DNA of 64,000 nucleotides from Candidatus Nanoarchaeia archaeon (lineage in GTDB: Archaea > Nanobdellota > Nanobdellia > Tiddalikarchaeales > Tiddalikarchaeaceae): contig JBAZGS010000002.1 in assembly GCA_041652755.1 (NCBI GenBank), forward strand, positions 24,516 to 88,515, read 5' to 3'. Numbering within the stretch: position 1 is the first letter of the stretch; each line of letters opens with the position of its first letter. The translations under genes were made by a program, and so were the position numbers. The notes below the pieces were generated by a model, which saw only the letters and a program-made list of their open reading frames with translations, was not told where the DNA came from and did no database searches. Below are positions 19,622 through 45,458 of this stretch, one piece after another.

Positions 19622-19623
19622 TT

Positions 19624-23013: not shown

Positions 23014-23073
23014 GATTTAATACTGCCAAGTGATAAAGTTTAAAAATACTATATTAGCTAATATATTATTAAT

Positions 23074-23145
23074 GCTCTGGTAGTCTAGTGGTTAGGACAT
23101 CAGCCTGTCACGCCGATAACCTGGGTTCGAATCCCAGCCAGGGCG
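23074..23145 (+). tRNA. tRNA-Asp (GTC)
   Basis: Acceptor GCTCTGG/CCAGGGC with one G-U pair, anticodon loop cTGTCAc, T-arm ctgggttcgaatcccag. Its 3' end is the attachment core of the adjacent element. Confidence 0.85.
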
Positions 23146-23197
23146 GGAATTCCATAGGTATCACTTAAGGTATGAACTAAAAAGAACAAATACTTAG

Positions 23198-24397: not shown

Positions 24398-24404
24398 TTT
24401 AATT

Positions 24405-25637
24405 TTATTCTAATGAATCAAATCTTATTTTTTCATATTTTTCTATTATTATATCTAATAATTCCTCAGGTGAATTAATATTGTCTAATTCTTTTTTTAA
24501 TATTTCAATAATTGAAATATTAACATGATGAAATGCTTTAATTTTAGTTAATTTACATATTTTTCCAAGATCCCCAGTTGTTCCTTCAACAGAAAATATA
24601 ATTCCAAATTTACAATTATGAAAAATTAATTTAGTTAAAAAATGATTTAATTGGCTAGAATTAACTTTTTCAGTTGTATTTTTGCATTCGCATAAAACAT
24701 ATTCTCCAAATAAATTTTTAAATGGATAAATTAGATTATTTCTAAAAGCTATATCTATTTGATACTCTTTTAATATATTATCACTAGGTCCGACATTTAT
24801 ATTTTTAATAACATTTATTTGATCCAAAGTACTTAATAAATAAGTACAACAATCTTCAAATCTTAATCCTTTTTCATTATTATCTTTTGAATTTTTAATC
24901 CAATTAGAAAAAATATTCAATAAATTTTTATTAAAACTATTTAAAAAACTAAATTTATTTTTTTCTTTTGAATAAAAATAAATAAAACTTTCTGGAAAAT
25001 AAATAAAATCTTTTAAACTATCATAATTTTTCCTAACAAATGAAACAATTTCATCTAATTTTTCTTGAGAAAAAAATTCTGTTTTAAGAACTAAATATGC
25101 TTTTCCCATATAACAAGTGGATATTTTTTTTTCTATTTCACTAACAATATCTTCAATAAATGCAAATAAAGTGTATTGTTTCAATTTTTCAACATTATTC
25201 TTTTTTCTATAAATCCAACCTAATTGATGTAATATAAGTCCTTTATGAATTCTTTCTTTCTTTTCTAATTCATAATCATTTAAAAATTTATAAATATCTT
25301 TATATGCATATTCTGCTAATAATAAAAATTCTGCTGATTTAAATTCATTATATAACATAAAATAAAAGTATCCAATAGTATTTGAAAGAATTAATATTTC
25401 TTTAGTCTCTTTTATTTCCTTTAATAAAGCAATAAAAGAATGAAAATAATCATAAGAATTATTTGCTTTTGCACAAGTTTCAATTAGTCTTTTCCCCTCA
25501 ACTGAATAATCTTTTGTAATTTCATTTAATTCTTTATCTAACTTATCTTTTAATCCTTGAGGAATAATTCCTTCATAATTATTTTTTTCAATAACATATT
25601 TCATCAATAATTTTGCTATTCCAAATTCATCAACCAT
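24405..25637 (-). CDS. Mrr-like PD-(D/E)xK nuclease domain protein with uncharacterised alpha-helical N-terminal region
   Basis: C-terminal RFEDCC ... QIDIAF ... GEYVLCECK ... FGIIFSVEG fits the Mrr_cat E/D/ExK core. The N-terminal roughly 270 aa have no recognised motif. Confidence 0.45.
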   Translation of the reverse strand: MVDEFGIAKLLMKYVIEKNNYEGIIPQGLKDKLDKELNEITKDYSVEGKRLIETCAKANNSYDYFHSFIALLKEIKETKEILILSNTIGYFYFMLYNEFKSAEFLLLAEYAYKDIYKFLNDYELEKKERIHKGLILHQLGWIYRKKNNVEKLKQYTLFAFIEDIVSEIEKKISTCYMGKAYLVLKTEFFSQEKLDEIVSFVRKNYDSLKDFIYFPESFIYFYSKEKNKFSFLNSFNKNLLNIFSNWIKNSKDNNEKGLRFEDCCTYLLSTLDQINVIKNINVGPSDNILKEYQIDIAFRNNLIYPFKNLFGEYVLCECKNTTEKVNSSQLNHFLTKLIFHNCKFGIIFSVEGTTGDLGKICKLTKIKAFHHVNISIIEILKKELDNINSPEELLDIIIEKYEKIRFDSLE

Positions 25638-25729
25638 TAAAATTTAAATAATTTTTAACTATAAAAATATACCTTATTTAATAAAATTTCATAGACTGAA
25701 AAATATATTATTTTATTGATGTTTTTTCT

Positions 25730-26263
25730 TTAATAATCATTTTTTTTTACAAAAGAATCAAACATAATTAAATCAATATTAATATCTTTAAAGAATAAAT
25801 CAAAAAAATAATTAGCTTCTTTTTTTATTTCTTTATTACCTATTTTTGTAAAAAGCCATAAATATTTTGGAAAAGCATCAAATAAATATTTTAATCCTTC
25901 TTCATAAGGTAATCCATCTCTAGTTTTATATTTTAAATAAAAAACTTTATCTGATTCCTTTTTCTCAATTATTTTTTTTAAAAAAATTTCTGCAATAGGT
26001 ATTAATTTATCCCATTTTTTTATAATATTTAGTTTAATACATTTGCTTATAAATCCATTATAATTTATTTCATAAGTTATTGGTTTTCCATCATTTTTCT
26101 TAATTAATCCTTTTTTAGTCAAAATTCTTAATTCTTTATTAATATTATCTATATCTCTATTTCTTATTTTTTTTAATTCTAATGCAGATAAAGGTTTATG
26201 AATTAATTCAATAAAATCATTAAAATATTCTTTACTTCTATAAGGATATTTTACTTCTTCCAT
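25730..26263 (-). CDS. winged-helix domain protein
   Basis: LSALELKKIRNRDIDNINKELRILTKKGLIKK...ITYEIN is a wHTH pattern. Lies upstream of, and co-oriented with, the Mrr-like gene. Confidence 0.35.
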   Translation of the reverse strand: MEEVKYPYRSKEYFNDFIELIHKPLSALELKKIRNRDIDNINKELRILTKKGLIKKNDGKPITYEINYNGFISKCIKLNIIKKWDKLIPIAEIFLKKIIEKKESDKVFYLKYKTRDGLPYEEGLKYLFDAFPKYLWLFTKIGNKEIKKEANYFFDLFFKDINIDLIMFDSFVKKNDY

Positions 26264-26316
26264 AGGTAATTTTATACCCCAAAATAATATATAAAAATGT
26301 TGATTTTTGATTATTT

Positions 26317-26475
26317 ATGACAATTATTACAAAGAATATTTGTTTAGATGAAGATTTATTTAATAAATCAAAACAAATATGTAAAAGTACAGGACGAACA
26401 TTTTCTGGATTCGTGAGATTCCTTATTGAGAGGGAAATGGAAAAAGATGAAGGGAGTGGGAATAATGGAAATTAA
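26317..26475 (+). CDS. ribbon-helix-helix (CopG-like) protein, 52 aa
   Basis: Hand-translated MTIITKNICLDEDLFNKSKQICKSTGRTFSGFVRFLIEREMEK, with the RHH pattern of beta-strand, then helix, GR, then helix. Confidence 0.4.
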   Translation: MTIITKNICLDEDLFNKSKQICKSTGRTFSGFVRFLIEREMEKDEGSGNNGN

Positions 26476-26573
26476 ATCTTCTTTTAAAAACTGGTCTGAT
26501 TTAATGGATTTTGTTAAGTTAGAAGCCAAAGAGCAATTAATTAAACAAATTAAGAAAAAAGAGGTTAAATCTA

Positions 26574-26792
26574 ATGATGACAAAGGCACAAATTGATTTT
26601 GAATCTTGTAATTTTAGGGATGAATTAATCCTTTTTTTAATTAAACAAATGAATTGTGCAAGTCTTGAAACTTTAACTATTGTATCAGGGATTACTAAAG
26701 AAAAATTAACCAAAGTAATAAAAAGATTACAACAAAGAAAATTAATCAAAATTGCTACAACAATTAGAACAAATTATTATGGGGTGGTATAA
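26574..26792 (+). CDS. winged-helix DNA-binding protein
   Basis: ASLETLTIVSGITKEKLTKVIKRLQQRKLIKI is an HTH plus wing pattern. Confidence 0.4.
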   Translation: MMTKAQIDFESCNFRDELILFLIKQMNCASLETLTIVSGITKEKLTKVIKRLQQRKLIKIATTIRTNYYGVV

Positions 26793-27311
26793 ATGAATGA
26801 ATCAGATGAATTAATAAATAAAAAATTAGATTTAATTTTACAAAAAGTAATCAATATAGAAGAAAAACAAAGTTTGCGCATTAATGATACTAAAAAACAA
26901 CAATGTGAATTAATTAAAGAAAAACTTGAAGAAAATTCGGTTATTTCAAGTAATGGAATAAGTGATTTATTTAATTTTACTTATGCAGAGTATACTTATA
27001 GGTTAATTAAAACGTTTTCTAAACTTTATCCTAAAATATGTAAACTTATAAATGGAAAAAAAGGAAAAAATCCAAATATTATCCTAAATAAAAAGTCAAA
27101 TATATACTTAGCACTTAATTATCTTTATTCCAATTGTCCAAAAATTAATGATTACTTTAGTTTAAAGACTATTGAAATGCAATTCAATTTTAAATCTAAT
27201 GATTTAACTGTGTTTAAAGAAATCTTATTTCATTATCTTATTGATGAATGGAAATGTGGAGAAGATAATCATATAATTGTGCGTAAAAAAATAATAAGTG
27301 AAGTGTTTTAA
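26793..27311 (+). CDS. hypothetical protein
   Basis: 172-aa ORF with a start overlapping the upstream stop (taaATG). Confidence 0.3.
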   Translation: MNESDELINKKLDLILQKVINIEEKQSLRINDTKKQQCELIKEKLEENSVISSNGISDLFNFTYAEYTYRLIKTFSKLYPKICKLINGKKGKNPNIILNKKSNIYLALNYLYSNCPKINDYFSLKTIEMQFNFKSNDLTVFKEILFHYLIDEWKCGEDNHIIVRKKIISEVF

Positions 27312-27550
27312 TAAATATTATTAACAAAAGAGTTACAAATTATATTTTTTTTTTAATGCTCCCAATTATTAATAATAAATATTAACAGTATTGTTGTTTA
27401 TTTATTGTATTTTATTATTATATTATATATAATATATTTGTAACTTAATTGTTATAATATTAGTTTAACATAAACAAACAAAATTTAATTAAATTTATTA
27501 AAAAAATGCTGCTAAAATAGAAAGAAACGACAGACAAAAATCCAGTATAA

Positions 27551-27645
27551 GCAAGAGAGTAAGCAAGAGAAAATTAATAATCATAGCTCGAGGCATAGCC
27601 CGAGAAATTGTCCATAGCGAGAGCCATAGCATGAGAAAATGATTT
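27551..27645. repeat. cluster of short direct repeats (2x gcaagaga; 4x CATAGC-N-GAG units) in a 387-bp AT-rich intergenic region
   Basis: gcaagaga at 27551 and 27563. catagc at 27582, 27594, 27613 and 27625, each followed by (c/t)cgag or gagag. Confidence 0.5.
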
Positions 27646-27698
27646 TTTTTTTATCAAATATATTTGAGAAATAATATATTAAATAATCATATGCAACA

Positions 27699-28172
27699 TT
27701 ATTTATAATATCTTAATTTTATATTATAAGTTATTGTATTTGGAATTTCAAATAACAAATCTATATCTTCTGATTCTAAAGGTTGTAAATAATCTGAAAA
27801 TACATCTGAATAGCCGTTTAATACATATTTTGAGTAATCATTTTGACTAATCCAGTCATTATTTATACAATCATATATATTTCCATGATCATCTAATAAC
27901 TTAAATTTATCTGAGTTAATATATTTTGAGGTTTTTCCTATATTTTTTATAGTAATTTCAACAATCGCAACATTTTGTTTTATACTATTAGAATAATATT
28001 TATTTAATACTGTTCCTGTGGGTGAAGCTGTTGAAGATTCTAAACGAATGGATAAATTATTTAATTCTTGTGTTTCTAAAGGAGAAATATCAATATATTT
28101 TTTTGAATCCGAATCTGATACTAATCCAATTAAAATTATAATTACAACTATCCAAAAAATACTAATTTTCAT
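27699..28172 (-). CDS. secreted/membrane-anchored protein (DUF4352-like fold suspected)
   Basis: N-terminal TM/signal MKISIFWIVVIIILIGLVS, then a beta-rich domain. Confidence 0.3.
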   Translation of the reverse strand: MKISIFWIVVIIILIGLVSDSDSKKYIDISPLETQELNNLSIRLESSTASPTGTVLNKYYSNSIKQNVAIVEITIKNIGKTSKYINSDKFKLLDDHGNIYDCINNDWISQNDYSKYVLNGYSDVFSDYLQPLESEDIDLLFEIPNTITYNIKLRYYK

Positions 28173-28238
28173 TATTTTAACGCCTCTTTAACGTATTCTT
28201 AACCTATTCAAATAAAAACAACACGTTTTAAAAACGTT

Positions 28239-28490
28239 ATGGATTGGTTAAAATTAGGTAAAGTTAAAGGAAGTAAAAATAAGAAAATAATAATTAATGC
28301 TTTAAACAAGCCAAAAACACCAACAGAACTATCCCAAGAGCTAAAAATAGCAAGATCAACATGCAGTAGCACACTTTTAGAACTTGAAACAATGCAATTA
28401 GTTAAATGCTTAACCCCAGAACTAAAACTAGGAAGATTATACCAACTAACAGAAGAAGGAGAAGAAATAAAGAAAGAAATTAAATTATAA
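28239..28490 (+). CDS. winged-helix transcriptional regulator (ArsR/MarR-like)
   Basis: TPTELSQELKIARSTCSSTLLELETMQLVK. Sits directly upstream of the three-gene operon. Confidence 0.45.
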   Translation: MDWLKLGKVKGSKNKKIIINALNKPKTPTELSQELKIARSTCSSTLLELETMQLVKCLTPELKLGRLYQLTEEGEEIKKEIKL

Positions 28491-28532
28491 TGTTAACCTT
28501 TTAAACTTATAACTTTTAATATTATACTAAAC

Positions 28533-29639
28533 ATGTTATCTAAAAAAAATAAAAAATTGAATCCTCAAAAAAAAGGAAAAAAAGGTGAAAATAATTCAAT
28601 TAAAGCTTTAAAAGTATTATTTGAACAATTTTCTAGAATTAGTTCAATAAGAAAATATGAATCTGGTTTTCAGGGAGGAAAAGATATTAAAACATTTGCT
28701 TTTTTCAAAAAAAATAATTTTTTAGGTATTGTTGGAGATAAAAATTTAAAATGGTTTTTTGAAGTTAAACATTATGAAAGTAAATTAAATCCAGAAAAAG
28801 TTGTTTATAAAATTCATCAAGTTAAAGCTTCTAATTTAGAAATTGATTGTTTTTGTTTATTTTCTCCTAAAGAAGATATTCATGGTATATTGGAAGATAG
28901 TTTATCAGAAAAAAAAGTGTTAGATAATCCTGAATATCCATTTAAAATTGTATTATGGACTCCCTCTCAAAATATTAAAAGTAAATTATCTTGTTTTCCT
29001 GAAGTATATAAGGAAATTTATGATGAAGAAAGTAATATTTCAGATGATGATAAAAAAGAAATATTAAATAATTGGATCGAAGAAATTTATAAACAAACAG
29101 AAGAAGGAAAAAAAATACGTGAAGATTTTGTTACTAAATTTAAAGGAATAAATCCTATTTGGATTCCTGAAAGTATAAATTATGCACAAAATATAATTAT
29201 TGATGATGAAGGTCAAAAAACATTTTCTGAAAAACAATCAATATTAGAACAAAAACTTCGTATGGGAGGTATAAATGAATACCAAGATATTCTTAAAGCA
29301 AAAAGAAATAGAATATTAAGTGAAGGAATAAGAAGAAAATATAAAAAATCGGATGAAATTATTTTTATGGAATTGACCTCTATTAAATATGAATTAGAAA
29401 ATTTTTGTCTTGATTTAGAAAAAAATATTTTAGAAAAAGAATCAACTAATGAAGCAAGATTATTTTTAATAGAATTTTTTAATAAACTTGAAGAATTTAA
29501 ACAAAAATGTAAAAACAAAGAAATAATAGAAAAATTACCTAATTATTACTTTGATGGACAAATGTATGAAATAACTTCAGAATGCTTATTAAGTTTATCA
29601 AAAAAATGGTTAAAAGAAATAAAAGGTATATTAAAATGA
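28533..29639 (+). CDS. PD-(D/E)xK nuclease-domain protein (LmuA/DdmA-like candidate effector)
   Basis: N-terminal KALKVLFEQF ... GIVGD ... FFEVKHY, the E / D / ExK arrangement. The stop overlaps the next gene's ATG (ATGA). Confidence 0.45.
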   Translation: MLSKKNKKLNPQKKGKKGENNSIKALKVLFEQFSRISSIRKYESGFQGGKDIKTFAFFKKNNFLGIVGDKNLKWFFEVKHYESKLNPEKVVYKIHQVKASNLEIDCFCLFSPKEDIHGILEDSLSEKKVLDNPEYPFKIVLWTPSQNIKSKLSCFPEVYKEIYDEESNISDDDKKEILNNWIEEIYKQTEEGKKIREDFVTKFKGINPIWIPESINYAQNIIIDDEGQKTFSEKQSILEQKLRMGGINEYQDILKAKRNRILSEGIRRKYKKSDEIIFMELTSIKYELENFCLDLEKNILEKESTNEARLFLIEFFNKLEEFKQKCKNKEIIEKLPNYYFDGQMYEITSECLLSLSKKWLKEIKGILK

Positions 29640-30127
29640 AAGAAATTGATAATACTAAATTTTTAGAACTTGCTCAAATGATTTTATTATTAGGAAATTC
29701 ACAAAAAAATATAATTTATGAAAAACATAAATTCATGACTTTTTTATTTTTTATTAAAAATCCACTTTATTTAGGTAAATTATGTGAAAAAATACATCCG
29801 GAATTCTCAAAAAATATTCATTTAAATCATACTGAAGAATATAACTTATTATATGATATTGAAAGAATAAGTGTTTGGAATAGTAAAAATGATTTAAACA
29901 TTGCATATCTATTAGGTAAAGGATTAGTGAATGTTGAATTAACTGATAAAGGATATTCTTTTTCTTTAACCTTAGAGGGGTTAAAATTATTTAAATCATT
30001 AAAAAATGATAAATCTATGCAAATAGAAAATATTAGATCTAAAATTATAAACAATATTTTTAAAAAAGAATCTTTTAATGAAATAAAAGGTATAATAATT
30101 GATAATTTTAAGGAGTTAAATCTATGA
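29636..30127 (+). CDS. small alpha-helical protein (LmuC/DdmB-like position), 163 aa from the coupled ATG
   Basis: ATGA overlaps at both ends (29636-29639 and 30124-30127). No motif recognised. The ORF track's earlier start at 29582 is probably not used. Confidence 0.35.
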   Translation: MKEIDNTKFLELAQMILLLGNSQKNIIYEKHKFMTFLFFIKNPLYLGKLCEKIHPEFSKNIHLNHTEEYNLLYDIERISVWNSKNDLNIAYLLGKGLVNVELTDKGYSFSLTLEGLKLFKSLKNDKSMQIENIRSKIINNIFKKESFNEIKGIIIDNFKELNL

Positions 30128-32052
30128 ATAAAAATCCTTATATTCAAATAAAAAGATTAAAAGTGGAAGGTTTACATAAATTTGATAAATCTTTTAAAAA
30201 AGGTTTACATATTTTAGTTGGTAATAATAACTCTTGTGGAAAAAGTTTGTTTATTAAATTAATTGATTTTGCTTTAGGTGATGATGGTAATGATTTAAAG
30301 GAGTATGGTATTTTAAAAGATTGTTCTTTTTTTTATGCAGAATTAGAGGTAAATAATGAAACTTTAACAATAAAAAGAAATTTATATATTATTGATTCAA
30401 CAATTGAATTATTTTATAATAAAACTATTCAAGAAATATTAACTTCATCAATTATACCAGAATCTATATCTTACTCTGATTATCAAAAATTATTATTTAA
30501 AAAATTAACAAATTTTGATTATATTCCTACTATTAGTTCAAAAGGTAAAAAAGTTAGTATAGGTTTTCCTCATTTTTCAAATCTTTTTTATTTAAATCAA
30601 GGAGTAGCAGCAGGCCAATTATTTAGGTATAGTGATATTTATTTTCCAAATTATTTGAAAAAAAAAGTATTAAGTCTTTTCTTGAATACAAATGAAATAA
30701 AAAAATCATCTGATGAAATTGAATTAGGTAATTTAAAAGAACAAGTTAAAAATTCTATTGACCAATTAAATACAAAAAGATCTTTTTTTAATTCAAAATT
30801 TAATATAGATAATTATTTTGCTGAAATTGAAAATAAAAATAATATATTAAAAGAAATTGACACTTTAAAAGATAATTTAAATAATATAAATCAAGAGGCT
30901 TTAATTCAAATTGATTTACCTGTTCAAGAAAAAGATACTTTATATTTTTTAAAGAAAAGATTAGAGGAAATAAATAATTTAATATTTAATTGTAATACTA
31001 ATATTAAACAAACAACTAAGATATTAAATGATTATTCAGAAGAAATTTCTAAAACTGAAAAAAATATAACTTCATTTAATTTAATGAAAAAATTTGATAT
31101 ATCTATTTGTCCTGAATGCAATAAAAAAATAATTAAACAACTTAATAATAATTGTCCATTATGTAAAGAAAAATTAGATGAGGAAAAATCATTAAATAAT
31201 TATTTTGATAATAATATGAAATATTTAAGTTATTTAAAAGGTGCACTAAAAGATTCTGTTGATGTTATAAATAATGATAAAGAAAATGTAAATAAATTAA
31301 TAAAAGAAAGAGAAGAATTAATTAATGAAATAAATATTAAAGAAAAAAAATTAAATGATTTTATTAAAACAAATAAATTACCTATTTTAGATAAAATTTC
31401 TGAATTAAGTTATGAAATTTCAAAAAGAGAAGAAAAATTGAATTTTATAAATAAAAATATTGAAATATTAGAATCTTTCAAACATGAAGACGAAAGAATT
31501 GAAGATTTAAAAAACAAAATTAAAATTTTAAACAATAAAATTAAAGAGATAGAATCCGATTTAATTAATAAAAGTAGAGAAGAAAAGTTATTATCTATTT
31601 TAAATAATAATTTTAATTCTTTTTTTAATAATATTAATTATCCTTCATTTGAAAAAGCAAATTTGAATGAAAATTTTGATATAACTATTACTAACAATAG
31701 AGATGGTATCCAAAATTTAAATAAAATTACTTCCTCAAGTAATAGAATAATAATAAGATTAGGTTTATTTTATTCATTATTAAAAACTTCTTTAGAAAAT
31801 GATAATATAAATTATCCAAAGTTAATTTATTTAGATTCACCTAGAGATCAAGAATTAACTTGGGAGAGATTTAGTAATTCATTATTGTCTTTTAAAAGAT
31901 TATTAGACAATTCTGACGTTGAAGGTCAAGTATTTATTACTGTAGTAGAAGATGCTAAAAATGTTTTTGAAGGAGAATATGAATCTCTAAATGATAATGT
32001 ATTTATGAGAATTGAAGATAAATCTAATTTAAGATTATTAAGAAAAAATTAA
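30124..32052 (+). CDS. SMC/Rad50-like coiled-coil ABC ATPase (LmuB/DdmC-like)
   Basis: N-terminal LHILVGNNNSCGKSLFIKLIDFALG (Walker A in Rad50/RecF-type context), a roughly 400-aa N/K/E-rich predicted coiled coil, a central CPECN-x12-CPLCK knuckle and C-terminal KLIYLDSPRDQEL Walker B/D-loop. aaggag RBS lies 8 nt upstream. Confidence 0.55.
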   Translation: MNKNPYIQIKRLKVEGLHKFDKSFKKGLHILVGNNNSCGKSLFIKLIDFALGDDGNDLKEYGILKDCSFFYAELEVNNETLTIKRNLYIIDSTIELFYNKTIQEILTSSIIPESISYSDYQKLLFKKLTNFDYIPTISSKGKKVSIGFPHFSNLFYLNQGVAAGQLFRYSDIYFPNYLKKKVLSLFLNTNEIKKSSDEIELGNLKEQVKNSIDQLNTKRSFFNSKFNIDNYFAEIENKNNILKEIDTLKDNLNNINQEALIQIDLPVQEKDTLYFLKKRLEEINNLIFNCNTNIKQTTKILNDYSEEISKTEKNITSFNLMKKFDISICPECNKKIIKQLNNNCPLCKEKLDEEKSLNNYFDNNMKYLSYLKGALKDSVDVINNDKENVNKLIKEREELINEINIKEKKLNDFIKTNKLPILDKISELSYEISKREEKLNFINKNIEILESFKHEDERIEDLKNKIKILNNKIKEIESDLINKSREEKLLSILNNNFNSFFNNINYPSFEKANLNENFDITITNNRDGIQNLNKITSSSNRIIIRLGLFYSLLKTSLENDNINYPKLIYLDSPRDQELTWERFSNSLLSFKRLLDNSDVEGQVFITVVEDAKNVFEGEYESLNDNVFMRIEDKSNLRLLRKN

Positions 32053-32070
32053 TTTATTTTTAAAAGACGT

Positions 32071-32712
32071 TTATTTCCAATAAATTATACAAAATAAAAT
32101 TGATAAAATTAAAACAAAAATACTTATTTTTATCTTATTTTTAAATCTAAATTTTTTATTCTTTCCAAAAGTTATAAATGAAATAGATTTTAAGTAAAAA
32201 TAATTAATTAATATAGACATACTCATAAAAATTGAAATACTTCCTAATGAACTACTAATTTCTTTTGAAACAAAAAATAAAGTATAAATTGTATTTATCA
32301 ATGAAAAAATTAATACTAAAATTTCTATAAAAAATATAAAATTTAACCAATTTCCTAAATAAAATTCTTTTTTTGACTTATTGATTTCTCTTTGAATTAT
32401 ATAAGGAAAAAAAGTATATATAATAAGCGCAATTATTCCATATCCAAAACTAGTTATTAATTCTCCTGGTGGGGGATTATTAAATAATATAAAATTTATA
32501 ATATTTATACTAAATAGGAGTGGAACTATAAGACAAAATAAAGCTAAGAATATTAAGAGTAAGTTTCCAGATTCTTTTAAATTTTTAATTGTAACATATT
32601 TACCTTTCTTAAAAAATAGAATATACATAAAATAAGTATAAATTGCCAGAAATAAAAATATGTTAGTGTTGGGTAAAAAATTTAAAATTATTGATATAAT
32701 ATCTATACTCAT
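32071..32712 (-). CDS. polytopic membrane protein
   Basis: 6-7 TM segments; convergent with the operon and inside the element. Confidence 0.35.
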   Translation of the reverse strand: MSIDIISIILNFLPNTNIFLFLAIYTYFMYILFFKKGKYVTIKNLKESGNLLLIFLALFCLIVPLLFSINIINFILFNNPPPGELITSFGYGIIALIIYTFFPYIIQREINKSKKEFYLGNWLNFIFFIEILVLIFSLINTIYTLFFVSKEISSSLGSISIFMSMSILINYFYLKSISFITFGKNKKFRFKNKIKISIFVLILSILFCIIYWK

Positions 32713-32872
32713 ATTTGATTTAATTCACCTTTGACTAAAAAATATTTGTATTTTTTATGTATATTTTAAATATAATACTTATTAAGTAATTTTTTAAATC
32801 ATGTGCTCATTGTTTATATTAAGTTTAATGCTTAAGTAATACCCTAGAACCCAAATCCCAGCCAGGGCGCAC

Positions 32873-33715
32873 TTATTCTTTTTGTTTCCAATGATTGATT
32901 GCCTCAATATTGGTTCTGTAATAGTCTATTATTATGCCTTTTTTGAGCTCTTCATTACAGTCAATAAGCTTTTTCTGCTCAAAAGATGGTTCTAAGGTTC
33001 CAGTGTTTATGAAAATTCTCCTGTTAATCTCCCTATCTTTCCTGCCAAATCTCTTATATTTAAACACGTTGTCAAAGTAATCTTTTTCATCAGTGGTTTT
33101 TACGTAATACTTATTTTTGTTATCCATATTTAGCACCATCTCTTCGTCAAATAATTTTCCAATGAACATTAATTTATGAGTCCAATTCTGTGTTGGCAGT
33201 ATTGAAAGAAGCTCATTTCCTCTTTTTTTGCTGCTTTTGTCTGAATCATCATGAAATGAATTCGGCACAAATTCGTTATAAACGCTTTCTCCAGATAGGA
33301 GCACTTTTTTAAGCTTGGCATCTGAAGCGTTCAATGAGTCATAGATTGTCCTGAGCATGCACCAGTCAAGTTTTCCTCCTGTGAATATGAAAGAATCTTC
33401 ATGCTTAATCGAATCTTTTACTTCTTTTGGCAATACTCCTGAAATTGAGAACTCAAGATTGTAATTTTTCAGTTCCCTAAACTTTTTATTGCCTGTTATG
33501 ACATTTTCTTGCCCAAATTTTGTCAGGTCTTTGCTGTAAACATCGTTTATGCTGCCGTTTTTTTCCCTATAAACATCATAGATTAATCCGTCTTTGCAGC
33601 AGTCGCTCAGCTCAACAGTGCGACTAATTGGCAATTCATTTCCTAAATTTATCGGTCCCCAACCATTTCCCTCAACGTAATTCTTGTTGTAATGGGTTAT
33701 GAACATCACAGTCAT
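32873..33715 (-). CDS. hypothetical protein
   Basis: 280-aa ORF abutting attR on the chromosomal side. Confidence 0.3.
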   Translation of the reverse strand: MTVMFITHYNKNYVEGNGWGPINLGNELPISRTVELSDCCKDGLIYDVYREKNGSINDVYSKDLTKFGQENVITGNKKFRELKNYNLEFSISGVLPKEVKDSIKHEDSFIFTGGKLDWCMLRTIYDSLNASDAKLKKVLLSGESVYNEFVPNSFHDDSDKSSKKRGNELLSILPTQNWTHKLMFIGKLFDEEMVLNMDNKNKYYVKTTDEKDYFDNVFKYKRFGRKDREINRRIFINTGTLEPSFEQKKLIDCNEELKKGIIIDYYRTNIEAINHWKQKE

Positions 33716-34041
33716 AAAAATACAATTGAAACAATTCTATTTAAATAATTAATTACTTCCTTAAAAAAAAACTGATTAATTGAAGGATTAAAAAAAATCA
33801 TTTCTTCTGTCAATTATTTTAAAATTTTCACTTTCAATCATTTTAATTACTTATTATTAACTTATGGGCTTATAAAAATATTATTTTGAACTTACTAACT
33901 ATTGTTTTTTTATATAATCCTGAACTTTTGATTTAATATTCAACTAAAACAGTTTTTTCTTTTTGTCACTGAAAAGTTAACCTTATATTTTAAAAAATAG
34001 TGGGGAATATGAAAAATCATGAATGAGGTGTTTTTGAAAAA

Positions 34042-35460
34042 ATGAGTGAAGTATTAATGCAAAACGCATTTAAATCTTATGAAGCAATAGCTAAACAGGC
34101 ATTAGAAAATAATTATGTCCTTAAAGGATGTTTTTTTCCAGAGCTTGGAGAGTTTTACAGAGGCAAAGTTGCTGACAATCACATGAAAGGAAACAAGTTG
34201 TACAGCTTTAGGACTGACAGGATTTCCGCATTTGATTACGTGCTAAAAAGGCAGCAAATTCCTTTCAAAGGAGCAGCGCAAATAGGAATGACTTATCATG
34301 CCTTGAAAAAGACAAATGTTCCGCATGCAATGATTGACAGGCCAGACCCTAATGTTTTAGTCTATAAAGAATGCAAACCTTTTCCAGTGGAAGCAATTGT
34401 TAGGGGCTATTTAACCGGCAGTTTCTTTAAAAATTATTATTCAAAAGGCAAGCCTAATCCTTGGAATTTAAAGGTTCCTAATGGGCTAAAAGAGTTTGAT
34501 GCATTTCCAGAGCCATTATTTACTCCAACAACAAAGGAGGATTCGGGGCATGATTTGGATATTCCTGAAAATGAAATAATTGAAAAAGGATATGCCACAA
34601 AAGAGCAGCTTAAGCAGGTCAAAGAGTACAGCTTCCAGCTTTTTAAGGAAGGCACAGAAACTGCTGCAGCGCAGAATTTTATACTAGTTGACACTAAGTA
34701 TGAGTTCGGAATCGATGAAAATGGAAACGTTGTAGTAATTGATGAAATCCACACACTTGATTCGTCAAGATTCTGGTACAAAAAAGACTATGATGAGAAT
34801 GTAGCAAAAGGAAAATCTCCCTACTCATGGTCTAAGCAGGTTGACAGGGACATCTTCTCATCAAAAGGGGATGTTGAATCATTCGGCTGCCTGCCAAGAT
34901 TAACCTTGGATGAAATAATCAAGACTTCAGTGATTTACATGCAGATGCATAAAGGAATAACAGGGCAAGACTTAATTTATAACCCAGCCAAAAATCAAAG
35001 CATTGAGGAAAGAATCCTTGAAAACATGGTATCAAAAGGCTATGCCAAAGGAGGATGCGCAATAATTATGGCTGCAAGCAAAATTGACCAGCCTCATTAC
35101 AGCAAAATCGCTGATGAACTGACAAATTTGAATGTTCCATGCTTTATTTCAGAGCCTCTTTCAGCGCATAAAGAAACGCAAAAAGTGCTTGATAAAGTTG
35201 AGCTATACAATACAAGTGTTGAGCCAATAGTATACATCAATGTTGCAGGAGGAAGCAACGGGTTAGGTCCTATAATTTCAGGAAAGATAGCGAAAGACAA
35301 GAAATCTTTCACCAATATTGCATGCCCAGTGTTTGCTGACAAGTCAACAATGCAAATGGATGCATGGTCAAGCTTGAACATGCCTTCAGACATAGCAATG
35401 CCTGTAATATTGCGCCCAAGAAATGCAGCGCTTGAAGCAAAAAATCAGCTGAAATTATAA
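34042..35460 (+). CDS. purCE: bifunctional SAICAR synthetase (PurC) / AIR carboxylase (PurE) fusion (PAICS-like)
   Basis: N-terminal FYRGKV...TDRISAFD (SAICAR synthetase). C-terminal IIMAASKID...SAHK...VAGGSNGLGPIISG...PV...MP pattern of PurE. Confidence 0.7.
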   Translation: MSEVLMQNAFKSYEAIAKQALENNYVLKGCFFPELGEFYRGKVADNHMKGNKLYSFRTDRISAFDYVLKRQQIPFKGAAQIGMTYHALKKTNVPHAMIDRPDPNVLVYKECKPFPVEAIVRGYLTGSFFKNYYSKGKPNPWNLKVPNGLKEFDAFPEPLFTPTTKEDSGHDLDIPENEIIEKGYATKEQLKQVKEYSFQLFKEGTETAAAQNFILVDTKYEFGIDENGNVVVIDEIHTLDSSRFWYKKDYDENVAKGKSPYSWSKQVDRDIFSSKGDVESFGCLPRLTLDEIIKTSVIYMQMHKGITGQDLIYNPAKNQSIEERILENMVSKGYAKGGCAIIMAASKIDQPHYSKIADELTNLNVPCFISEPLSAHKETQKVLDKVELYNTSVEPIVYINVAGGSNGLGPIISGKIAKDKKSFTNIACPVFADKSTMQMDAWSSLNMPSDIAMPVILRPRNAALEAKNQLKL

Positions 35461-35476: not shown

Positions 35477-35506
35477 TTTTTTTTTTTTTTTTATTTTTTT
35501 TTTTTT
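35477..35506 (+). terminator. long oligo-T tract
   Basis: About 28 T in 30 nt immediately after the purCE stop. Archaeal terminators are oligo-T. Confidence 0.5.
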
Positions 35507-35618: not shown

Positions 35619-36974
35619 ATGGGAAACATTGATTTTGGTTATGGTTCAAAAGAATCCGGAAACGTTGAAGAGACCACAAAGAAAAGCATTAACGGAGTTA
35701 AAGGTTTATACTTGTTTGATAGGAATGCTCTTGGCACTTTTTTCGGGTTTGATGCCAAAAGTTGCGATTTAGACTTTTATGCCAGCACTCTCGGAAGCAA
35801 AGGCCAGCAATTTTATGAAAATGGAGATATGGAAGGTTTTGCAACAAAAACCTATGACAATCATTTCGGACAAGCTCATAATTATGCAGATATTACTGTA
35901 GCTGCCAACCATTTAATGATTCATGAGGACAATAATCCTTTCAGGGACAGGTTTGTCGAGCAATTAAGAGTGCTTGGCCAAAAATATAACCTTGCTATTG
36001 CTGGAGGAGAAACCGCAATAATGTATACTTTGCTTGGAATGTATGCCAGCTTAACCTCAATAGGAATTAATACTTCTGGAACTCAAACGGATTTAGAAAA
36101 CACTGTTTTGACAACTCATGATGATGGGGCTGGAACAAAACCTGTAACCATTGCAAGAGCTTATGGGCTAAAGCACACTAGCTCAATATATGATGCTGGC
36201 GCAATGAATTTTAATGACATACTTTGTGCTGCTCTTTGCCTGCCAAGGGAATGGTTTGTTGTAAATACTTTAATTGTCGGAAAAAATTATGAAACTGTCT
36301 ACCCTTTGTACAAGAATGATTTACAAAAGCTCTGCACAGAGTTAGGCATGAACCTTAAGGTCAATAACCATGTCATAATGCCCAACTTCAAGGGAATTGA
36401 GTATGATATGAATGTTAGCGCTTTGTTTGATAAGCATAAACTTCGCAAATTTAATGTTCAGGAGGGCCAAAAATTAATAGGGCTTGGCGCCACAGGCTTA
36501 GGGAGCAATGGTTATACTGGTGCAGTAAGCTTTGCAGATAATAACCTAAAAGATGAACAAAGGGCTGAGTTTGATAAAAAGCTTTCAAAACCAACACCAA
36601 TATTCATTGATGCATTTAAAGCTGTTGAAGATATTCCTATCCAATGGGCATCCCATGTCACTGGAGGCGCTTTCACCAAACTAACTAAAATAATACCAAA
36701 TAATTTTGCAGTTTATATTAACAGGAATCATTCTTTAAAACCCCAATCTGAATTTTATCAGCTGAAAACTCAAGCAACAAACCAAAGAATGTATAGTTAT
36801 TTTAATTGCGGAATACAAGGAATACTTGGAGTTAAGCCGGAGCACGCTGATGAAGTAATCCAAAGAATAAGCAAAACGAATATTAAAGCAGATGAAATAG
36901 GCTATGTTAAAAAAGGAAAAGGGCAAATCCAAATAGAGTCAATGTTTGATAATGAACTAGTGACCTTTGAATAA
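35619..36974 (+). CDS. PurM-family (AIR synthetase-related) protein
   Basis: LAIAGGETAIM (PurM GGETAEM motif) and the upstream ADITVAANHL region. The N-terminal roughly 100 aa are divergent. Confidence 0.55.
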   Translation: MGNIDFGYGSKESGNVEETTKKSINGVKGLYLFDRNALGTFFGFDAKSCDLDFYASTLGSKGQQFYENGDMEGFATKTYDNHFGQAHNYADITVAANHLMIHEDNNPFRDRFVEQLRVLGQKYNLAIAGGETAIMYTLLGMYASLTSIGINTSGTQTDLENTVLTTHDDGAGTKPVTIARAYGLKHTSSIYDAGAMNFNDILCAALCLPREWFVVNTLIVGKNYETVYPLYKNDLQKLCTELGMNLKVNNHVIMPNFKGIEYDMNVSALFDKHKLRKFNVQEGQKLIGLGATGLGSNGYTGAVSFADNNLKDEQRAEFDKKLSKPTPIFIDAFKAVEDIPIQWASHVTGGAFTKLTKIIPNNFAVYINRNHSLKPQSEFYQLKTQATNQRMYSYFNCGIQGILGVKPEHADEVIQRISKTNIKADEIGYVKKGKGQIQIESMFDNELVTFE

Positions 36975-37002: not shown

Positions 37003-37587
37003 TTAATTTTCTTCTTTGAGTATTTTTTCAATCGAGTCTGTTATTAAATTTATTGCTTCTTTTTTGTACTTAATGCTTTTTGTGCAAACAGCACCTAGTG
37101 TTGACAAATCAATGTAATTAGGATTATATTCAGGCTCTTGGGCTATTATTTCATCGGTTTTTTCTTTTATTATATTAAATAATTTTTCCCCGTAATTATT
37201 CTTTACTAAACCAATATTTCCATCATTTAAGCCGTGCATTAATGAGTTTTTAAAATAAGTGCTTTGCTCAAGTATTGACATTAATCCTTCCTCTGCAATA
37301 TTCTTATTAGAGATTTTAATTGCTGTCAAATCGCAAGAATACTTGTCAGCAGGGTAGCCTGCAGTTTTTAATCCTAAAGCAATTAAATATTGTTGGTTAT
37401 TAAAAGTGCATAAACTCGCATTTTCATAAATCATTTCTCCTGTTCGGGTTCTATGCCAGTCGCTATCATCAGCTATTTCTGCATAAACTTTTTCGGAAAA
37501 ATTAATTTTTTCATGCTTGTTTTTTTTGATTAATGAATTATATATTCCTTGAAATAATTCATTGACTGTAATTCCTTTATTAGTCAT
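37003..37587 (-). CDS. hypothetical protein
   Basis: 194-aa ORF. Confidence 0.3.
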   Translation of the reverse strand: MTNKGITVNELFQGIYNSLIKKNKHEKINFSEKVYAEIADDSDWHRTRTGEMIYENASLCTFNNQQYLIALGLKTAGYPADKYSCDLTAIKISNKNIAEEGLMSILEQSTYFKNSLMHGLNDGNIGLVKNNYGEKLFNIIKEKTDEIIAQEPEYNPNYIDLSTLGAVCTKSIKYKKEAINLITDSIEKILKEEN

Positions 37588-37755
37588 TCTAAAAATGGAA
37601 AACTATTCTATTTATAAACATTGCCATTAAAAAAAGTGTTAATTAATTTGGTTTAAAATGAATTTTTATTTTAATATTCAGCAAGAGCATCTTATTTTCT
37701 TATAAATGAGAATATAATAACATTTTAATATTTAAGGGTAATAATAATTTAATTA

Positions 37756-41370: not shown

Positions 41371-41856
41371 TTATAAAAATATTTTTTCTAATTCTGACAC
41401 AATAATGGTTTTTTCATACAATGCTTGGATATTTTTTATCCATGAAGCCAATTCTCCTTTGTCAAGCACAAACACTTGTTTTTTGTAGTCTTTTACTGCA
41501 GTTATTATTTCTCCAAGAGTTCCTATTCCTCCAGGCAATGCAACTATTATGTCAGAATCCTTTATCATGCACTCATTTCTTGTAGTGTAAGTCCCAGCAG
41601 TTTCTATTGTTTCATCAGGAAAAGGGCCTATTTTTTCATCCACTTTTTTCATCTCTTCTTCTGAAGGAAAATATGCAGTGTATTTTTTTCCATTGTTTAG
41701 TCTATAAGAATTAACAACCCATTTTGATACTCCAATTCCTCCTCCGCTGATTAATGAGTGATTATTTTTTGCAAGCAGTTCCCCTAAGCTTTCAGCTTCA
41801 GTTTTGTAAGCAGCCGCTTTTTTTTCATCCCAGTACCCAATGATTAAAACATTCAT
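41371..41856 (-). CDS. LOG-family (TIGR00730) Rossmann-fold nucleotide-binding protein
   Basis: LISGGGIGVSKWV and VALPGGIGTLGE motifs. Confidence 0.6.
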   Translation of the reverse strand: MNVLIIGYWDEKKAAAYKTEAESLGELLAKNNHSLISGGGIGVSKWVVNSYRLNNGKKYTAYFPSEEEMKKVDEKIGPFPDETIETAGTYTTRNECMIKDSDIIVALPGGIGTLGEIITAVKDYKKQVFVLDKGELASWIKNIQALYEKTIIVSELEKIFL

Positions 41857-41952: not shown

Positions 41953-43872
41953 ATGCTTATGGGGAGTTTGGACAAATTATTATTCAAAGATAAGGAGATT
42001 TTATTGTCAAACGGCGCGGGCATTCTTAACTGGTTAGGCTATGCAGATGTAGGATTTGATGAGTTTGTAACTAAAAGCATTGGATTAAACGGGCCTGAAG
42101 AGTTATATGAAGCTGTAAGGTATGAAATTGAAAAATATTCAGCTAAAAAGCATAAACTTTCATATGTTGAAGAAAGAGAAATAATAGATAAAGTTTATAA
42201 TTCTTATAAAGAATCTCATCCAAAAGAATGGGAGAATTATTGGAATGGGCTTATGAAAAGGAGCGGATGGAATCCTCCAGTAATGGTTCATGGCAAATTT
42301 GAAGATAAAGAATATTTTGTTAACAGGATGGGTCTTCCAAATCCAGGAGTGAATGAATTAATTAAAAGAATACAAAAATATGAAGGAAAAACTCCAATCA
42401 TTGTTTCAATCTTTGGCCAAAATGATAAAGAATTAGAAAGACTCATTGAATTATTTGAAAGCAATGAAAACATTTCAAATAAAATTAAAGGCTATGAAAT
42501 CAACAAGTCATGCCCTAACACTGCCAAAGGTGAATCAGTTATGGATAAAGAGAAGGAGTCTTTGCTTGATTCAATTAAAACTTTAAGAAATAAAACTAAT
42601 AAAAAATTGTATTTGAAGTTAAGTCCTTTAGTTGATGTTTCAAAGTTCATTGTTGATTTTGAAGCAGCAGGGATTGATGCTTTAACTCTTAGCAACACTG
42701 TTCCTGCAGCAGTTTTTAATAAATATTCTGGCAAGAAAATAATTGAGGGAGGCTTGTCAGGTGAATTATTATTTGAGCACACATTGCACACTATTTACAA
42801 AGCAAGGCAAACAGGCTCAAATCTTAAGATTAATATGAGTGGAGGATTAAATAACATATTTCAAGTTTATCAATCTATACTTTTAGGAGCTGATACTTTG
42901 CAATTAGGCAGCGTTTTTGCAGGCAAAACAAAAGAACAAATTATTACATATATTTCAGGTTTAAGAAACCAGCTTAATATATTGTTAAACACTATTCCTT
43001 TAGATGAAAAATTCAAGCTTATTCCATCAGAGCCTTCATGGTTTGATGAAGTCTTAGAAAATGGCAAATTAAGACTTGAAAATGATGAACATAAAGAGTA
43101 CACTATTAAACAAGTTGTAAAAGAATCAATTGACACTTATACATTGTTTTTTGACAAAAAAATAAAGCACATTCCAGGCCAGTATTTGGCAGTGATGCTA
43201 TGGGATGAAAAAGATAATCCAATGATGAGGCCATACACTTTATCAGGGGACAACAGCATAACAGTAAGGATAAGGGGAGAGATGAGCAAGAGACTTGCAG
43301 GGTTAAGCAAAGGCGATAAAGTTTACATGAGCGAAGCAAGAGGCAATGGTTACAATTTAGGTTTATTAAAAAATAAGAAAGTATTAGTGATTGGGGGTGG
43401 ATGTGGCATTGCATCACTAACTGATTTGGTTGAAAATGTTAATGCTGATTTTGACTTCATTGCAGCTTATAAGTCAAGGGATGAAGTTTTGATGAATATG
43501 GCTGAAAGGATTACAAAAAAAAATGTAAAAAGTTACTCTGAACAAATCTCTGACAAATTGCAAGTGTCAAGGATTAAGTTCATAAACCATGATTACATTG
43601 TTACTTGCGGACCCCAAGCAATGATGCAAGCAATAGTTAATGAAGCAGTTAAGCAAGGCGCTGATGATAATAATATTATTGAGAATATTGAGCGTTACAT
43701 GAAATGCATGGGATTAGGATTATGCGCTTCTTGCGACACAGGAGATAGTAAAGATGATGATAGGGTTTGCGTTAAAGGCACAGTATTTACAGGCAAGCAA
43801 GCCAAAGGTTTTGGCGAAAGGGACAAGAGCGGCGCAATAATTAATGAAAAAAAAAGTGATAACTTATGTTAA
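41953..43872 (+). CDS. pyrDK: dihydroorotate dehydrogenase (class 1B-type catalytic domain) fused to PyrK-like FAD/NAD/[2Fe-2S] electron-transfer domain
   Basis: FVTKSIGLNG, RMGLPNPGV, YEINKSCPNT, KLSP and LSNT are DHOD motifs. The C-terminal RPYTLSG (FAD), GGGCGIAS (NAD) and CMGLGLCASCD...C ([2Fe-2S]) give the PyrK pattern. Confidence 0.7.
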   Translation: MLMGSLDKLLFKDKEILLSNGAGILNWLGYADVGFDEFVTKSIGLNGPEELYEAVRYEIEKYSAKKHKLSYVEEREIIDKVYNSYKESHPKEWENYWNGLMKRSGWNPPVMVHGKFEDKEYFVNRMGLPNPGVNELIKRIQKYEGKTPIIVSIFGQNDKELERLIELFESNENISNKIKGYEINKSCPNTAKGESVMDKEKESLLDSIKTLRNKTNKKLYLKLSPLVDVSKFIVDFEAAGIDALTLSNTVPAAVFNKYSGKKIIEGGLSGELLFEHTLHTIYKARQTGSNLKINMSGGLNNIFQVYQSILLGADTLQLGSVFAGKTKEQIITYISGLRNQLNILLNTIPLDEKFKLIPSEPSWFDEVLENGKLRLENDEHKEYTIKQVVKESIDTYTLFFDKKIKHIPGQYLAVMLWDEKDNPMMRPYTLSGDNSITVRIRGEMSKRLAGLSKGDKVYMSEARGNGYNLGLLKNKKVLVIGGGCGIASLTDLVENVNADFDFIAAYKSRDEVLMNMAERITKKNVKSYSEQISDKLQVSRIKFINHDYIVTCGPQAMMQAIVNEAVKQGADDNNIIENIERYMKCMGLGLCASCDTGDSKDDDRVCVKGTVFTGKQAKGFGERDKSGAIINEKKSDNLC

Positions 43873-44498: not shown

Positions 44499-45458
44499 AT
44501 GAAAATTTTAATGGCAACAGGAAAAAACGGCAAGCTTGATGATTTAGGTGTTAATGCCTTAGAAGCTTATTTACTTAAAGAGCAGAGGATAAAAAACAAT
44601 GAAGAACAAGGATTTAATCCTTTCACTCCAATTTATGAGGCTGATATGAAATTCGAGCCAATAAAAATTGATGCAGCTTCAAATAATTATAACTCCAAAG
44701 TTGAAGAAGTATATGGCTCGCTTATTGATTCAGGAAAATTCGTGCCAGGAGTTTATGGCGATTTCTTCAAGTTTGTTGAAACAAATGAAGGGTTATTCCT
44801 TACTGAACTTGGAAACAAATCTTATAATAAGCCAAATGAAGCCACTGACTTAGGCTTGACATTACTTTCAAAAGACAATCAAGTTTACTCAGTATTCATC
44901 AAAAGAAAAAACGAGCCAGGAAAAGGCAGGGCTGCTTTTGCAGGAGGATTCTGCGATAAAAAATCAGGATATGTTGATTCACCCTTGTTTACTGCAATCA
45001 AAGAAGCAAGCGAAGAGTTCAACTTCAGCTGCAGTGATGATATTGAAAAGTACAGAAATGACTATAACACGAAACAAATAGAATTAAATGTTTTAATAGG
45101 AGAAAAACGCTTTAAAGGGTTATTAGAATATTGCGGAACTTTCAAAACAAGCAATGAATTAATGAAAAACGGCGGAGAAAGAATAAGCGAAAAAAGCGCT
45201 AAAGTAAGGGTTGACAAAACTCATTTGTATATCCTGACTGTCAAGACTGATATGAGTTCTAAAGAGTTAGAGAAAGCATTAAAATCCACTTACAAAGCAG
45301 GCGATGATGCGGCAAAAGTAATAATAGAAAACCTCACAAATTATGCGCTAAGCAATGACTCCAAAGGATTAAATGACAAATTAAAATGCGGAATATTGCA
45401 CCACAAAGATTTAGTCGCAAATTTAGTAAGCAAAGCTTCTTTACTCTTTTTCAAATGA
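44499..45458 (+). CDS. Nudix-like hydrolase domain protein (degenerate Nudix box)
   Basis: AGGFCDKKSGYVDSPLFTAIKEASEEF resembles Gx5Ex7REUxEExGU with K in place of R. Confidence 0.35.
   Translation: MKILMATGKNGKLDDLGVNALEAYLLKEQRIKNNEEQGFNPFTPIYEADMKFEPIKIDAASNNYNSKVEEVYGSLIDSGKFVPGVYGDFFKFVETNEGLFLTELGNKSYNKPNEATDLGLTLLSKDNQVYSVFIKRKNEPGKGRAAFAGGFCDKKSGYVDSPLFTAIKEASEEFNFSCSDDIEKYRNDYNTKQIELNVLIGEKRFKGLLEYCGTFKTSNELMKNGGERISEKSAKVRVDKTHLYILTVKTDMSSKELEKALKSTYKAGDDAAKVIIENLTNYALSNDSKGLNDKLKCGILHHKDLVANLVSKASLLFFK

Follow-up and report, generated by a model that had tools for sequence, protein, structure and literature searches.

A PurC-PurE fusion of prokaryotic type in a Nanoarchaeia archaeon, most likely independent of animal PAICS

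How does an archaeon come to encode, in one reading frame, two purine enzymes whose fusion is associated chiefly with animals? The question is raised by purCE, a gene at 34042..35460 on the plus strand of a 64,000-nucleotide stretch of DNA from a Candidatus Nanoarchaeia archaeon (in what follows the window, meaning the whole stretch). It is a single open reading frame (ORF) of 472 residues that joins a SAICAR synthetase (PurC) to a class II PurE (AIR carboxylase), where AIR is 5-aminoimidazole ribonucleotide, CAIR its 4-carboxy derivative and SAICAR the succinocarboxamide ribonucleotide. In a review and an archaeal gene survey, the fusion of PurC to a class II PurE is a eukaryotic, chiefly animal trait (the enzyme PAICS), whereas prokaryotes have separate PurK, PurE and PurC (PMC10912719, PMC3261824). 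A sequence-only reading of the locus had remarked that archaeal and bacterial purC and purE are normally separate, and had taken the fused gene as possibly a eukaryote-like module acquired by horizontal transfer. Our results point to another answer: with a probability of about 0.8, purCE encodes a genuine bifunctional purine enzyme of a widespread prokaryotic PurC-PurE(II) family, is a backbone gene of its genome and is independent of PAICS.

The reading frame starts with ATG and has no internal stop in the ORF list. Pfam profiles place SAICAR_synt on residues 38-274 (E 1.5e-57, 195.5 bits against a cut-off of 20) and AIRC on residues 341-468 (E 3.1e-14, 53.2 bits against a cut-off of 30), the latter match (PF00731) spanning profile positions 3-125 of 148. 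Over both domains and the junction, AlphaFold2 gives a model of high confidence (predicted local distance difference test, pLDDT, 92.2; predicted template modelling score, pTM, 0.90). One ORF, the Pfam matches, the model and the fold matches bear out that a long-form PurC is fused in frame to PurE in the PAICS order, and the motifs quoted for it are found (FYRGKV at residues 38-43, TDRISAFD at residues 58-65). Between the domains lies the helical C-terminal extension of the long-form PurC together with a connector (34864..35055, plus strand; residues 275-338), in which helices are modelled at residues 289-307 and 321-331. Because R324, N328 and L329 of the junction helix are at least 90% conserved in 87 fused proteins, the junction is to be seen as a conserved element, not as an accidental read-through. 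An independent 138-kb Joint Genome Institute metagenome contig (L001), with matching gene order, encodes a protein of 92% identity and likewise 472 residues (P0001), and both domains are present in 88 of the 120 best homologues.

The PurC catalytic core (34153..34863, plus strand; residues 38-274; PF01259 E 1.5e-57) is of the long-form type. By sequence as well as by Foldseek, the best solved-structure matches of the PurC part are yeast Ade1 and Mycobacterium abscessus PurC, on which the model superposes with TM-scores (template modelling) of 0.80-0.83 and a root-mean-square deviation (rmsd) of 2.6-3.2 Å. Residues invariant in the family include G41, K42, D59, S62, F64, E117, R121, T161 and P162, followed by D217, K219, E221, D234, E235 and D240-R243.

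The PurE domain (35056..35457, plus strand; residues 339-472) carries the signatures of class II. Its P-loop, S346-K-I-D349 (35077..35088, plus strand), aligns to S274-T-S-D277 of human PAICS; S346 and D349 are invariant in 22 fusions and at least 90% conserved in 87. The 40s loop, S374-A-H376-K377 (35161..35172, plus strand), holds the universal catalytic histidine followed by the class II lysine, as expected for S-A-H-K rather than the class I S-A-H-R; among 87 fusions S374 and A375 never vary, and the conservation of H376 and K377 is 90% or higher. The 70s loop, A402-G-G404-S-N-G-L408 (35245..35265, plus strand), fits the class II pattern A-G-R-S-N-G/A-L through its S-N-G-L, with Gly404 where Arg mostly stands (human Arg331), as in class I at that position, and the motif continues to S-N-G-L-G-P. 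The corresponding class I motif is A-G-G-A-A-H-L. When the domain was compared with solved structures by phmmer (E up to 0.01), solely class II entries were matched (4ja0, 3rg8, 5c5d and 2h31). Foldseek superposes the PurE part on the class II PurE of Treponema denticola with an rmsd of 1.7 Å (35% identity, 131 columns, E 1e-7), whereas class I PurEs match at 21-26% identity and E 6e-5 or weaker. The C-terminal domain therefore does model as the PurE fold, and the question of class posed by the sequence-only reading is answered in favour of class II by SAHK, SNGLGP and the solved-structure matches.

The roles of the PAICS P-loop residues, His303 and Lys304 were taken from PMC9376930. Compared with the 18 residues of the human AIR carboxylase active site given there, 13 are identical in the window protein, including Ser301, His303, Lys304, Asp277 and Ser332-Leu335 (human numbering). 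Arg331 of human PAICS contacts the substrate phosphate (PMC9376930); its equivalent is replaced solely in the window protein, P0001 and a few other members (by M, L, W, K, F or G). A 5-residue insertion follows the 70s loop (KIAKDKKSF). Past this loop the tail measures 68-71 residues in the window protein and many other fusions, against 88-99. Between the window protein and P0001 the PurE domain is 97% identical, against 92% for the whole protein.

How common the architecture is became apparent from an exhaustive search only: the PurE domain by itself retrieved only 3 proteins in a word-indexed homologue search, whereas scanning 1.84 billion representative proteins gave 261 matches. Typing by local phmmer was obtained for 147 of the best 150, and among these we find 37 PurC-PurE proteins, 22 with an extra N-terminal domain before PurC-PurE, 13 of PAICS type, 66 free-standing PurEs and 9 combining PurE with something else. 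In all three extra-domain proteins scanned with Pfam the additional domain is a PurN-type formyltransferase. Such longer PurN-PurC-PurE fusions (P0131, P0143 and P0157; about 630-690 residues) occur in many clusters, and a PurC-GATase(PurQ-like)-PurE variant of 745 residues was also seen (P0003). A scan of GTDB species genomes, which provides examples and no census, adds full-length fusions in records labelled Bipolaricaulota, Cloacimonadota, Peribacteria and Chlorobiota, among others, and Opitutales, Anaerolineae, Atribacteria and Deltaproteobacteria; the genome of the window and its closest relatives are not among the matches listed. Archaeal carriers, judged by source name or gene context, come from at least five DPANN-type lineages: Nanoarchaeia (the window protein and P0001), Ca. 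Tiddalikarchaeum anstoanum (P0002), Nanoarchaeota (P0274), a contig where the gene adjoins RFC subunits (P0124), and one where it adjoins class I LysRS, PTH2 and ribosomal protein S3Ae (P0256). Since five or more archaeal lineages and numerous bacterial phyla have it, the fusion cannot be regarded as an archaeal oddity, whatever the usual separation of purC and purE.

Gene neighbourhoods give strong contextual evidence that the family carries out AIR -> CAIR -> SAICAR. Bacterial fusions are embedded in complete pur operons: in one of them (L091, encoding P0009) the order is IMPDH-purM-purL-purQ-purH-purCE-purD-purN-purF-guaA, and in a Calditrichota genome (L092, encoding P0030) it is purL-purQ-purH-purCE-purB-purD-purN-purF; separate purC, purE or purK genes were not found among the neighbours in these two operons. 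DPANN contigs show purO-purCE-purB (L083 9207-12900; also L084), and Ca. Tiddalikarchaeum has purCE-purB (L002 9674-12566). Fused copies were not found in phage and plasmid collections, where PurC-length matches alone were obtained.

To place both halves of the protein we built one bootstrapped neighbour-joining tree per domain (Kimura distances, numpy implementation), based on 130 columns and 157 sequences for PurE and on 256 columns and 184 sequences for PurC. The PurC tree unites the window protein with P0001 and P0002 at 93%, and sets this trio in an all-fused group with other archaeal proteins (39% support). All prokaryotic long-form PurC sequences, fused or free, form a clade at 72% from which the PAICS type is excluded; the metazoan PAICS-type sequences (among them one from a sponge, one from a frog and a UniRef entry that bears the annotation bifunctional PAICS) have a clade of their own with 100% support. 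In the PurE tree the same trio appears at 68%, joined at 74% by P0274, P0124 and P0018, and the PAICS-type sequences group apart from the window protein with about 50% support. The congruence of the two domain trees suggests that both domains have been passed on together, already fused, in a DPANN-rich group of prokaryotes, and speaks against derivation from animal PAICS. Scores tell the same story: PAICS-type PurC domains reach 17-32 bits against the window PurC part and prokaryotic fusions 100-270 bits, while overall identity is 22-23% to PAICS and 35-48% to prokaryotic fusions. The family has another type of PurC domain than metazoan PAICS, and an origin of the fusion separate from the animal one is therefore most likely. 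A structural search against the Protein Data Bank with Foldseek returns human and insect PAICS as the best full-length matches, at an rmsd of about 21 Å, which means that the model places the two domains differently relative to each other than PAICS does. In short, the PurC-then-PurE order of the metazoan family is present, but the trees do not support orthology of both domains to that family.

The genomic position also marks purCE as a resident gene. The window and L001 share about 90% nucleotide identity over 19000-23145, ending at a tRNA-Asp gene, and again from 33905 onwards through purCE and the PurM-like gene that lies downstream. The purCE start codon is 137 bp inside this resumed backbone, and the G+C content of the gene (38%) compares with 33-36% for other core genes.

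If the activities are as predicted, the class II PurE domain would convert AIR and CO2 directly to CAIR, requiring neither ATP nor PurK, after which the long-form PurC domain would consume aspartate and ATP to yield SAICAR. By analogy with PAICS, the ATP-driven second step might pull the first one forward and the fusion might keep CAIR from escaping. For the window inventory, 47 of the 60 ORFs with 120 or more residues were scanned with Pfam profiles, and for part of the rest the Pfam labels of L001 orthologues were used. No PurK or ATP-grasp match was obtained among the ORFs scanned, and neither the scans nor the labels revealed another gene of the pathway, so the remaining pur genes are, as had been said before, not in the window.

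The exception concerns the PurM-like neighbour at 35619..36974 (plus strand), which encodes an atypical PurM paralogue of 451 residues: a PurM body (residues ~157-442) preceded by a conserved N-terminal extension of ~150 residues. Its membership of the PurM family, already proposed, is upheld by a passing AIRS_C match (E 5e-12; 46.6 against a cut-off of 23.1), while the AIRS N-domain (19.8 against 24) and TIGR00878 (97 bits against 236) fail. Solved PurM structures align to residues 157-441, and a profile built from 63 canonical PurMs matches twice, on residues 97-140 (the GGETA segment) and on residues 156-442 (the rest). Indeed, the canonical GGETA position in the body reads VNNHV, and the GGETA motif sits in the extension. 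DGAGTK and NDI are kept, but the His position of GLHSNGY is Gly (GLGSNGY); these motif Asp and His residues we take to be equivalent to Asp65, Asp94 and His190 of E. coli PurM. The archaeal survey reports these three as 100% conserved in archaeal PurM (PMC3261824); in the PurM-like protein the active-site set so defined would be incomplete. It is 100% identical to an NCBI entry named 'AIR synthase-related protein [Ca. Nanoarchaeia archaeon]' from a metagenome-assembled genome. Long PurM forms of this kind number only 4-5, are 48-51% identical and apparently all derive from similar archaea. Elsewhere they adjoin an OMP-decarboxylase-family (orotidine monophosphate) gene or a nucleoside/AMP-phosphorylase-type gene and not purCE, and the pairing seen here is therefore lineage-specific. 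The AlphaFold2 model is good for residues 160-451 and poor for the extension (pLDDT 30-80). The paralogue may supply AIR to PurCE, and it may represent a new arrangement within the PurM superfamily.

The transcription signals around purCE were read from the sequence. An A/T-rich TATA-like stretch, with a putative promoter role, lies at ~33981-33999 (plus strand), and a Shine-Dalgarno-like GAGGTG (34025..34030, plus strand) stands 11 nt 5' of the ATG. A T16-A-T13 tract (35477..35506, plus strand) begins 17 nt past the stop codon. Oligo-T tracts end transcription in archaea, and this one is probably such a terminator; purCE may accordingly be transcribed apart from the PurM-like gene.

Several observations weigh against an active enzyme of independent origin and should be set beside the evidence above. 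The protein scores below the NCBIfam equivalog cut-offs for both halves (289.1 bits against 371 for PRK12607, the long-form purC model; 42.5 against 149.6 for TIGR01162, the purE model). It is therefore a divergent member of both families, and automatic naming of the PurC half at equivalog level would fail. Five of the 18 carboxylase positions differ (Met272->Ala, Gly273->Ala, Thr275->Lys, Ser276->Ile and Arg331->Gly), and at two of them, Ser276 and Arg331, the PAICS side chain contacts phosphate. Compared with free-standing PurE and with PAICS, the domain also stops ~30 residues short: alignments end 5 residues before the end of the window protein, at residue 125 of 159 in 3rg8 and 388 of 425 in PAICS, and the complete C-terminal helices of the solved PurE octamers are not present. 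Deep nodes of the PurE tree have bootstraps of 5% or less, and for this reason PAICS and the prokaryotic fusions may owe their class II PurE domains to a common ancestor. No other pur gene was found in the window or in about 10 kb further downstream (~74 kb in total), and the local source of AIR is uncertain because the PurM paralogue is without the conserved His and the canonical GGETA.

How far do these points favour other explanations? That two neighbouring genes were merged by an assembly or sequencing frameshift was raised solely since purC and purE are usually separate genes, and nothing speaks in its favour; the equally long orthologue in an independent assembly, the fused state of most of the best homologues, the conserved junction helix and the model's confidence across it reduce its probability to practically nil, and this earlier concern can be dismissed. 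More is to be said for a PurE domain that is catalytically dead, serving as an oligomerisation or scaffold module or acting on another substrate, with PurC alone active. The missing ~30 C-terminal residues, the substitutions at the two phosphate contacts and the weak Pfam AIRC score (53 bits, with a TIGR01162 score below its cut-off) would all fit. Against this, the universal catalytic His, SAHK, S-N-G-L and the P-loop Ser and Asp are all retained; the Arg position varies among other members as well (M, L, W, K, F); P0009 has the short tail too, and its gene belongs to a complete pur operon of a bacterium, without a second purE as neighbour; and the higher identity of the PurE domain than of the whole protein to P0001 fits purifying selection. 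Altogether an inactive PurE domain seems unlikely. Less probable still, and in our view very improbable, is the horizontal acquisition of a PAICS-like module from a eukaryote. It would account for the PAICS domain order and for human and insect PAICS being the best full-length Foldseek matches, and human and insect PAICS have exactly the 70s-loop sequence, AGRSNGLGPV, that occurs in the archaeal P0002 and P0018. It could further draw on P0172, a protein from a transcriptome of the protist Selenidium (EukProt), which falls in a 92% PurC clade with P0274, P0124 and P0256. However, the PurC domain is of the long form and the PAICS type scores far lower and forms its separate, fully supported clade; the protein finds its nearest kin among DPANN archaea and uncultured bacteria; purCE belongs to a backbone whose collinearity is conserved, and its G+C is ordinary; and both the low identity to PAICS and the large full-length rmsd argue the same way. 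The eukaryote-like module envisaged earlier therefore gives way to a fusion that is widespread in prokaryotes, with domain trees placing the window protein among archaeal fusions.

A further alternative concerns the pathway rather than the enzyme and is compatible with a bifunctional PurCE: a host-dependent archaeon might run a truncated pathway in which scavenged AIR, its riboside or formylglycinamidine ribonucleotide (FGAM) is taken to SAICAR and onward. We regard this as a tentative possibility, less likely than not. No purF, purD, purN, purT, purL, purQ, purB, purH, purP or purO occurs within the ~74 kb, the local PurM paralogue is atypical, other DPANN contigs pair purCE with later steps alone (purB, purO), and Ca. 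Tiddalikarchaeum, which carries purCE-purB, has been described as without de novo purine enzymes (PMC8561730). On the other hand, archaeal pur genes are often scattered, and therefore absence from 74 kb says little, and neither a transporter nor a kinase that would handle these intermediates came to light. A more specific version is doubtful: PurCE and the atypical PurM might form a minimal FGAM/AIR-to-SAICAR module fed by host-supplied imidazole-ribotide, with no upper pathway, a partial extra N-domain of the PurM paralogue providing the GGETA lost by the body. If true, the paralogue would represent an architecture new to the PurM superfamily. Overall, a bifunctional enzyme of the prokaryotic PurC-PurE(II) family, resident in the archaeal backbone, remains the reading that we prefer.

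The protist protein deserves a remark of its own. P0172 (Selenidium pygospionis, a gregarine transcriptome) is a long-form PurC-PurE fusion. The sequence may be a contaminant, or else this line of protists may have a fusion of prokaryotic type.

Upstream of purCE, a 10.7-kb stretch specific to the window (23146-33904; 21.5% G+C) is integrated at the tRNA-Asp gene (23073-23146); it is absent from L001, where different small genes stand. It begins with a tyrosine-recombinase integrase (23198-24397) that ends in a zinc ribbon, and the 3' end of the tRNA-Asp recurs imperfectly, as AAATCCCAGCCAGGGCGC, at 32853-32870. This repeat was missed by a general repeat search of the window and was revealed by a mismatch-tolerant search with the tRNA 3' end. 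Cargo genes include a TrmB-like regulator (25730-26263) and a 642-residue protein with CxxC pairs (30124-32052); most ORFs of the element have no Pfam match. We considered purCE as cargo of this mobile element and rejected the idea: the gene starts 137 bp inside the conserved backbone and so is not cargo, gene order is conserved, and no fused copy turned up in the phage and plasmid collections.

Other features of the neighbourhood are recorded here as separate observations. Behind the PurM-like gene, a 741-bp insertion relative to L001 (36974-37714) contains an ORF of 194 residues (37003-37587, minus strand; 28.7% G+C; no Pfam match), and about 70 bp at 37660-37728 resemble, at 76% identity, the region 5' of purCE in L001. 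A 639-residue protein with dihydroorotate-dehydrogenase-like and DHODB-type Fe-S domains (41953-43872, plus strand) adjoins a SLOG/LOG-family protein (41371-41856, minus strand); both are kept in L001, and together with purCE they may form a nucleotide-metabolism neighbourhood. A 682-residue ORF (9437-11485, minus strand) combines an AsnB-like glutamine amidotransferase/asparagine-synthase module with Diphthami_syn_2 and could be a glutamine-dependent diphthine amidation enzyme. An ORF of 121 residues (45472-45837, plus strand) matches positions 125-220 of 242 of the NAD synthase profile alone, and just upstream of it lies an ORF of 319 residues (44499-45458) with no Pfam match; nadE may here be split, disrupted by a frameshift or strongly diverged. 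That the DNA is archaeal is borne out by window genes for topoisomerase VI (A and B), RIO kinase and diphthamide synthase, and by the 100% identity of the PurM-like protein to the Ca. Nanoarchaeia entry. Just downstream of the window come thyX and the RNA polymerase operon, in which Rpb2 is split and an Rpb5-type subunit is encoded.

What does the gene add to present knowledge? A 2024 review presents PAICS as eukaryotic (PMC10912719), and the archaeal purine-gene survey, in its accessible text, calls the fused PurCE 'common in eukaryotes' and reports none for archaea (PMC3261824). Prokaryotic PurC-PurE fusions were not described in the literature searched, nor in the accessible text of these two sources, though an earlier description may exist. 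Our analysis shows that the same architecture spans many uncultured bacterial phyla and several DPANN lineages, on a different PurC subtype, which looks like a convergent fusion of consecutive pathway steps. There are consequences for annotation as well: public labels name such proteins 'phosphoribosylaminoimidazolesuccinocarboxamide synthase' or, wrongly, 'fusion protein PurCD', so that the PurE function is missed in fusion-bearing genomes and the purine capacity of DPANN archaea may be underestimated. Ca. Tiddalikarchaeum, stated to have no de novo purine enzymes (PMC8561730), is a case in point: it carries purCE-purB, and the fused gene has seemingly escaped metabolic reconstructions. Seen in this light, the window gene is one more, somewhat divergent member of a widespread and under-annotated family: real, but fairly ordinary.

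Compared with known systems, the protein resembles metazoan PAICS (2h31, 6yb8, 4ja0) in having PurC at the N-terminus and a class II PurE at the C-terminus of one chain. Both share SAHK, S-N-G-L-G-P and 13 of the 18 carboxylase active-site residues, as well as the same two activities, which for the window protein are predicted. Differences lie in the PurC domain, a long form of ~310 residues (yeast Ade1/actinobacterial type) against ~260 in the PAICS type, and in PurE, where the last ~30 residues are gone and Arg331 is replaced by Gly. The resemblance is most likely one of convergence. T. denticola PurE (3rg8, 3rgg), the best structural match to the C-terminal domain, has the same class II motifs but is free-standing with 159 residues and complete C-terminal helices, whereas the window domain stops ~34 residues sooner. 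For the N-terminal 330 residues the best match is the long-form free-standing PurC of yeast (Ade1; 1a48/1obg) and M. abscessus (6yvq), which are without a PurE domain; free-standing archaeal and bacterial PurCs of 310-325 residues reach 215-235 bits against the PurC part. Closest in design are the other prokaryotic fusions (P0009, P0030 and P0002). The window protein has Gly for their usual Arg and a 5-residue insertion, and its gene stands outside any pur operon whereas the bacterial examples (L091, L092) lie inside one. Nevertheless, the architecture, the long-form PurC, the class II PurE and the conserved junction helix are the same, and these fusions are 35-48% identical to the window protein over 92-100% of the length.

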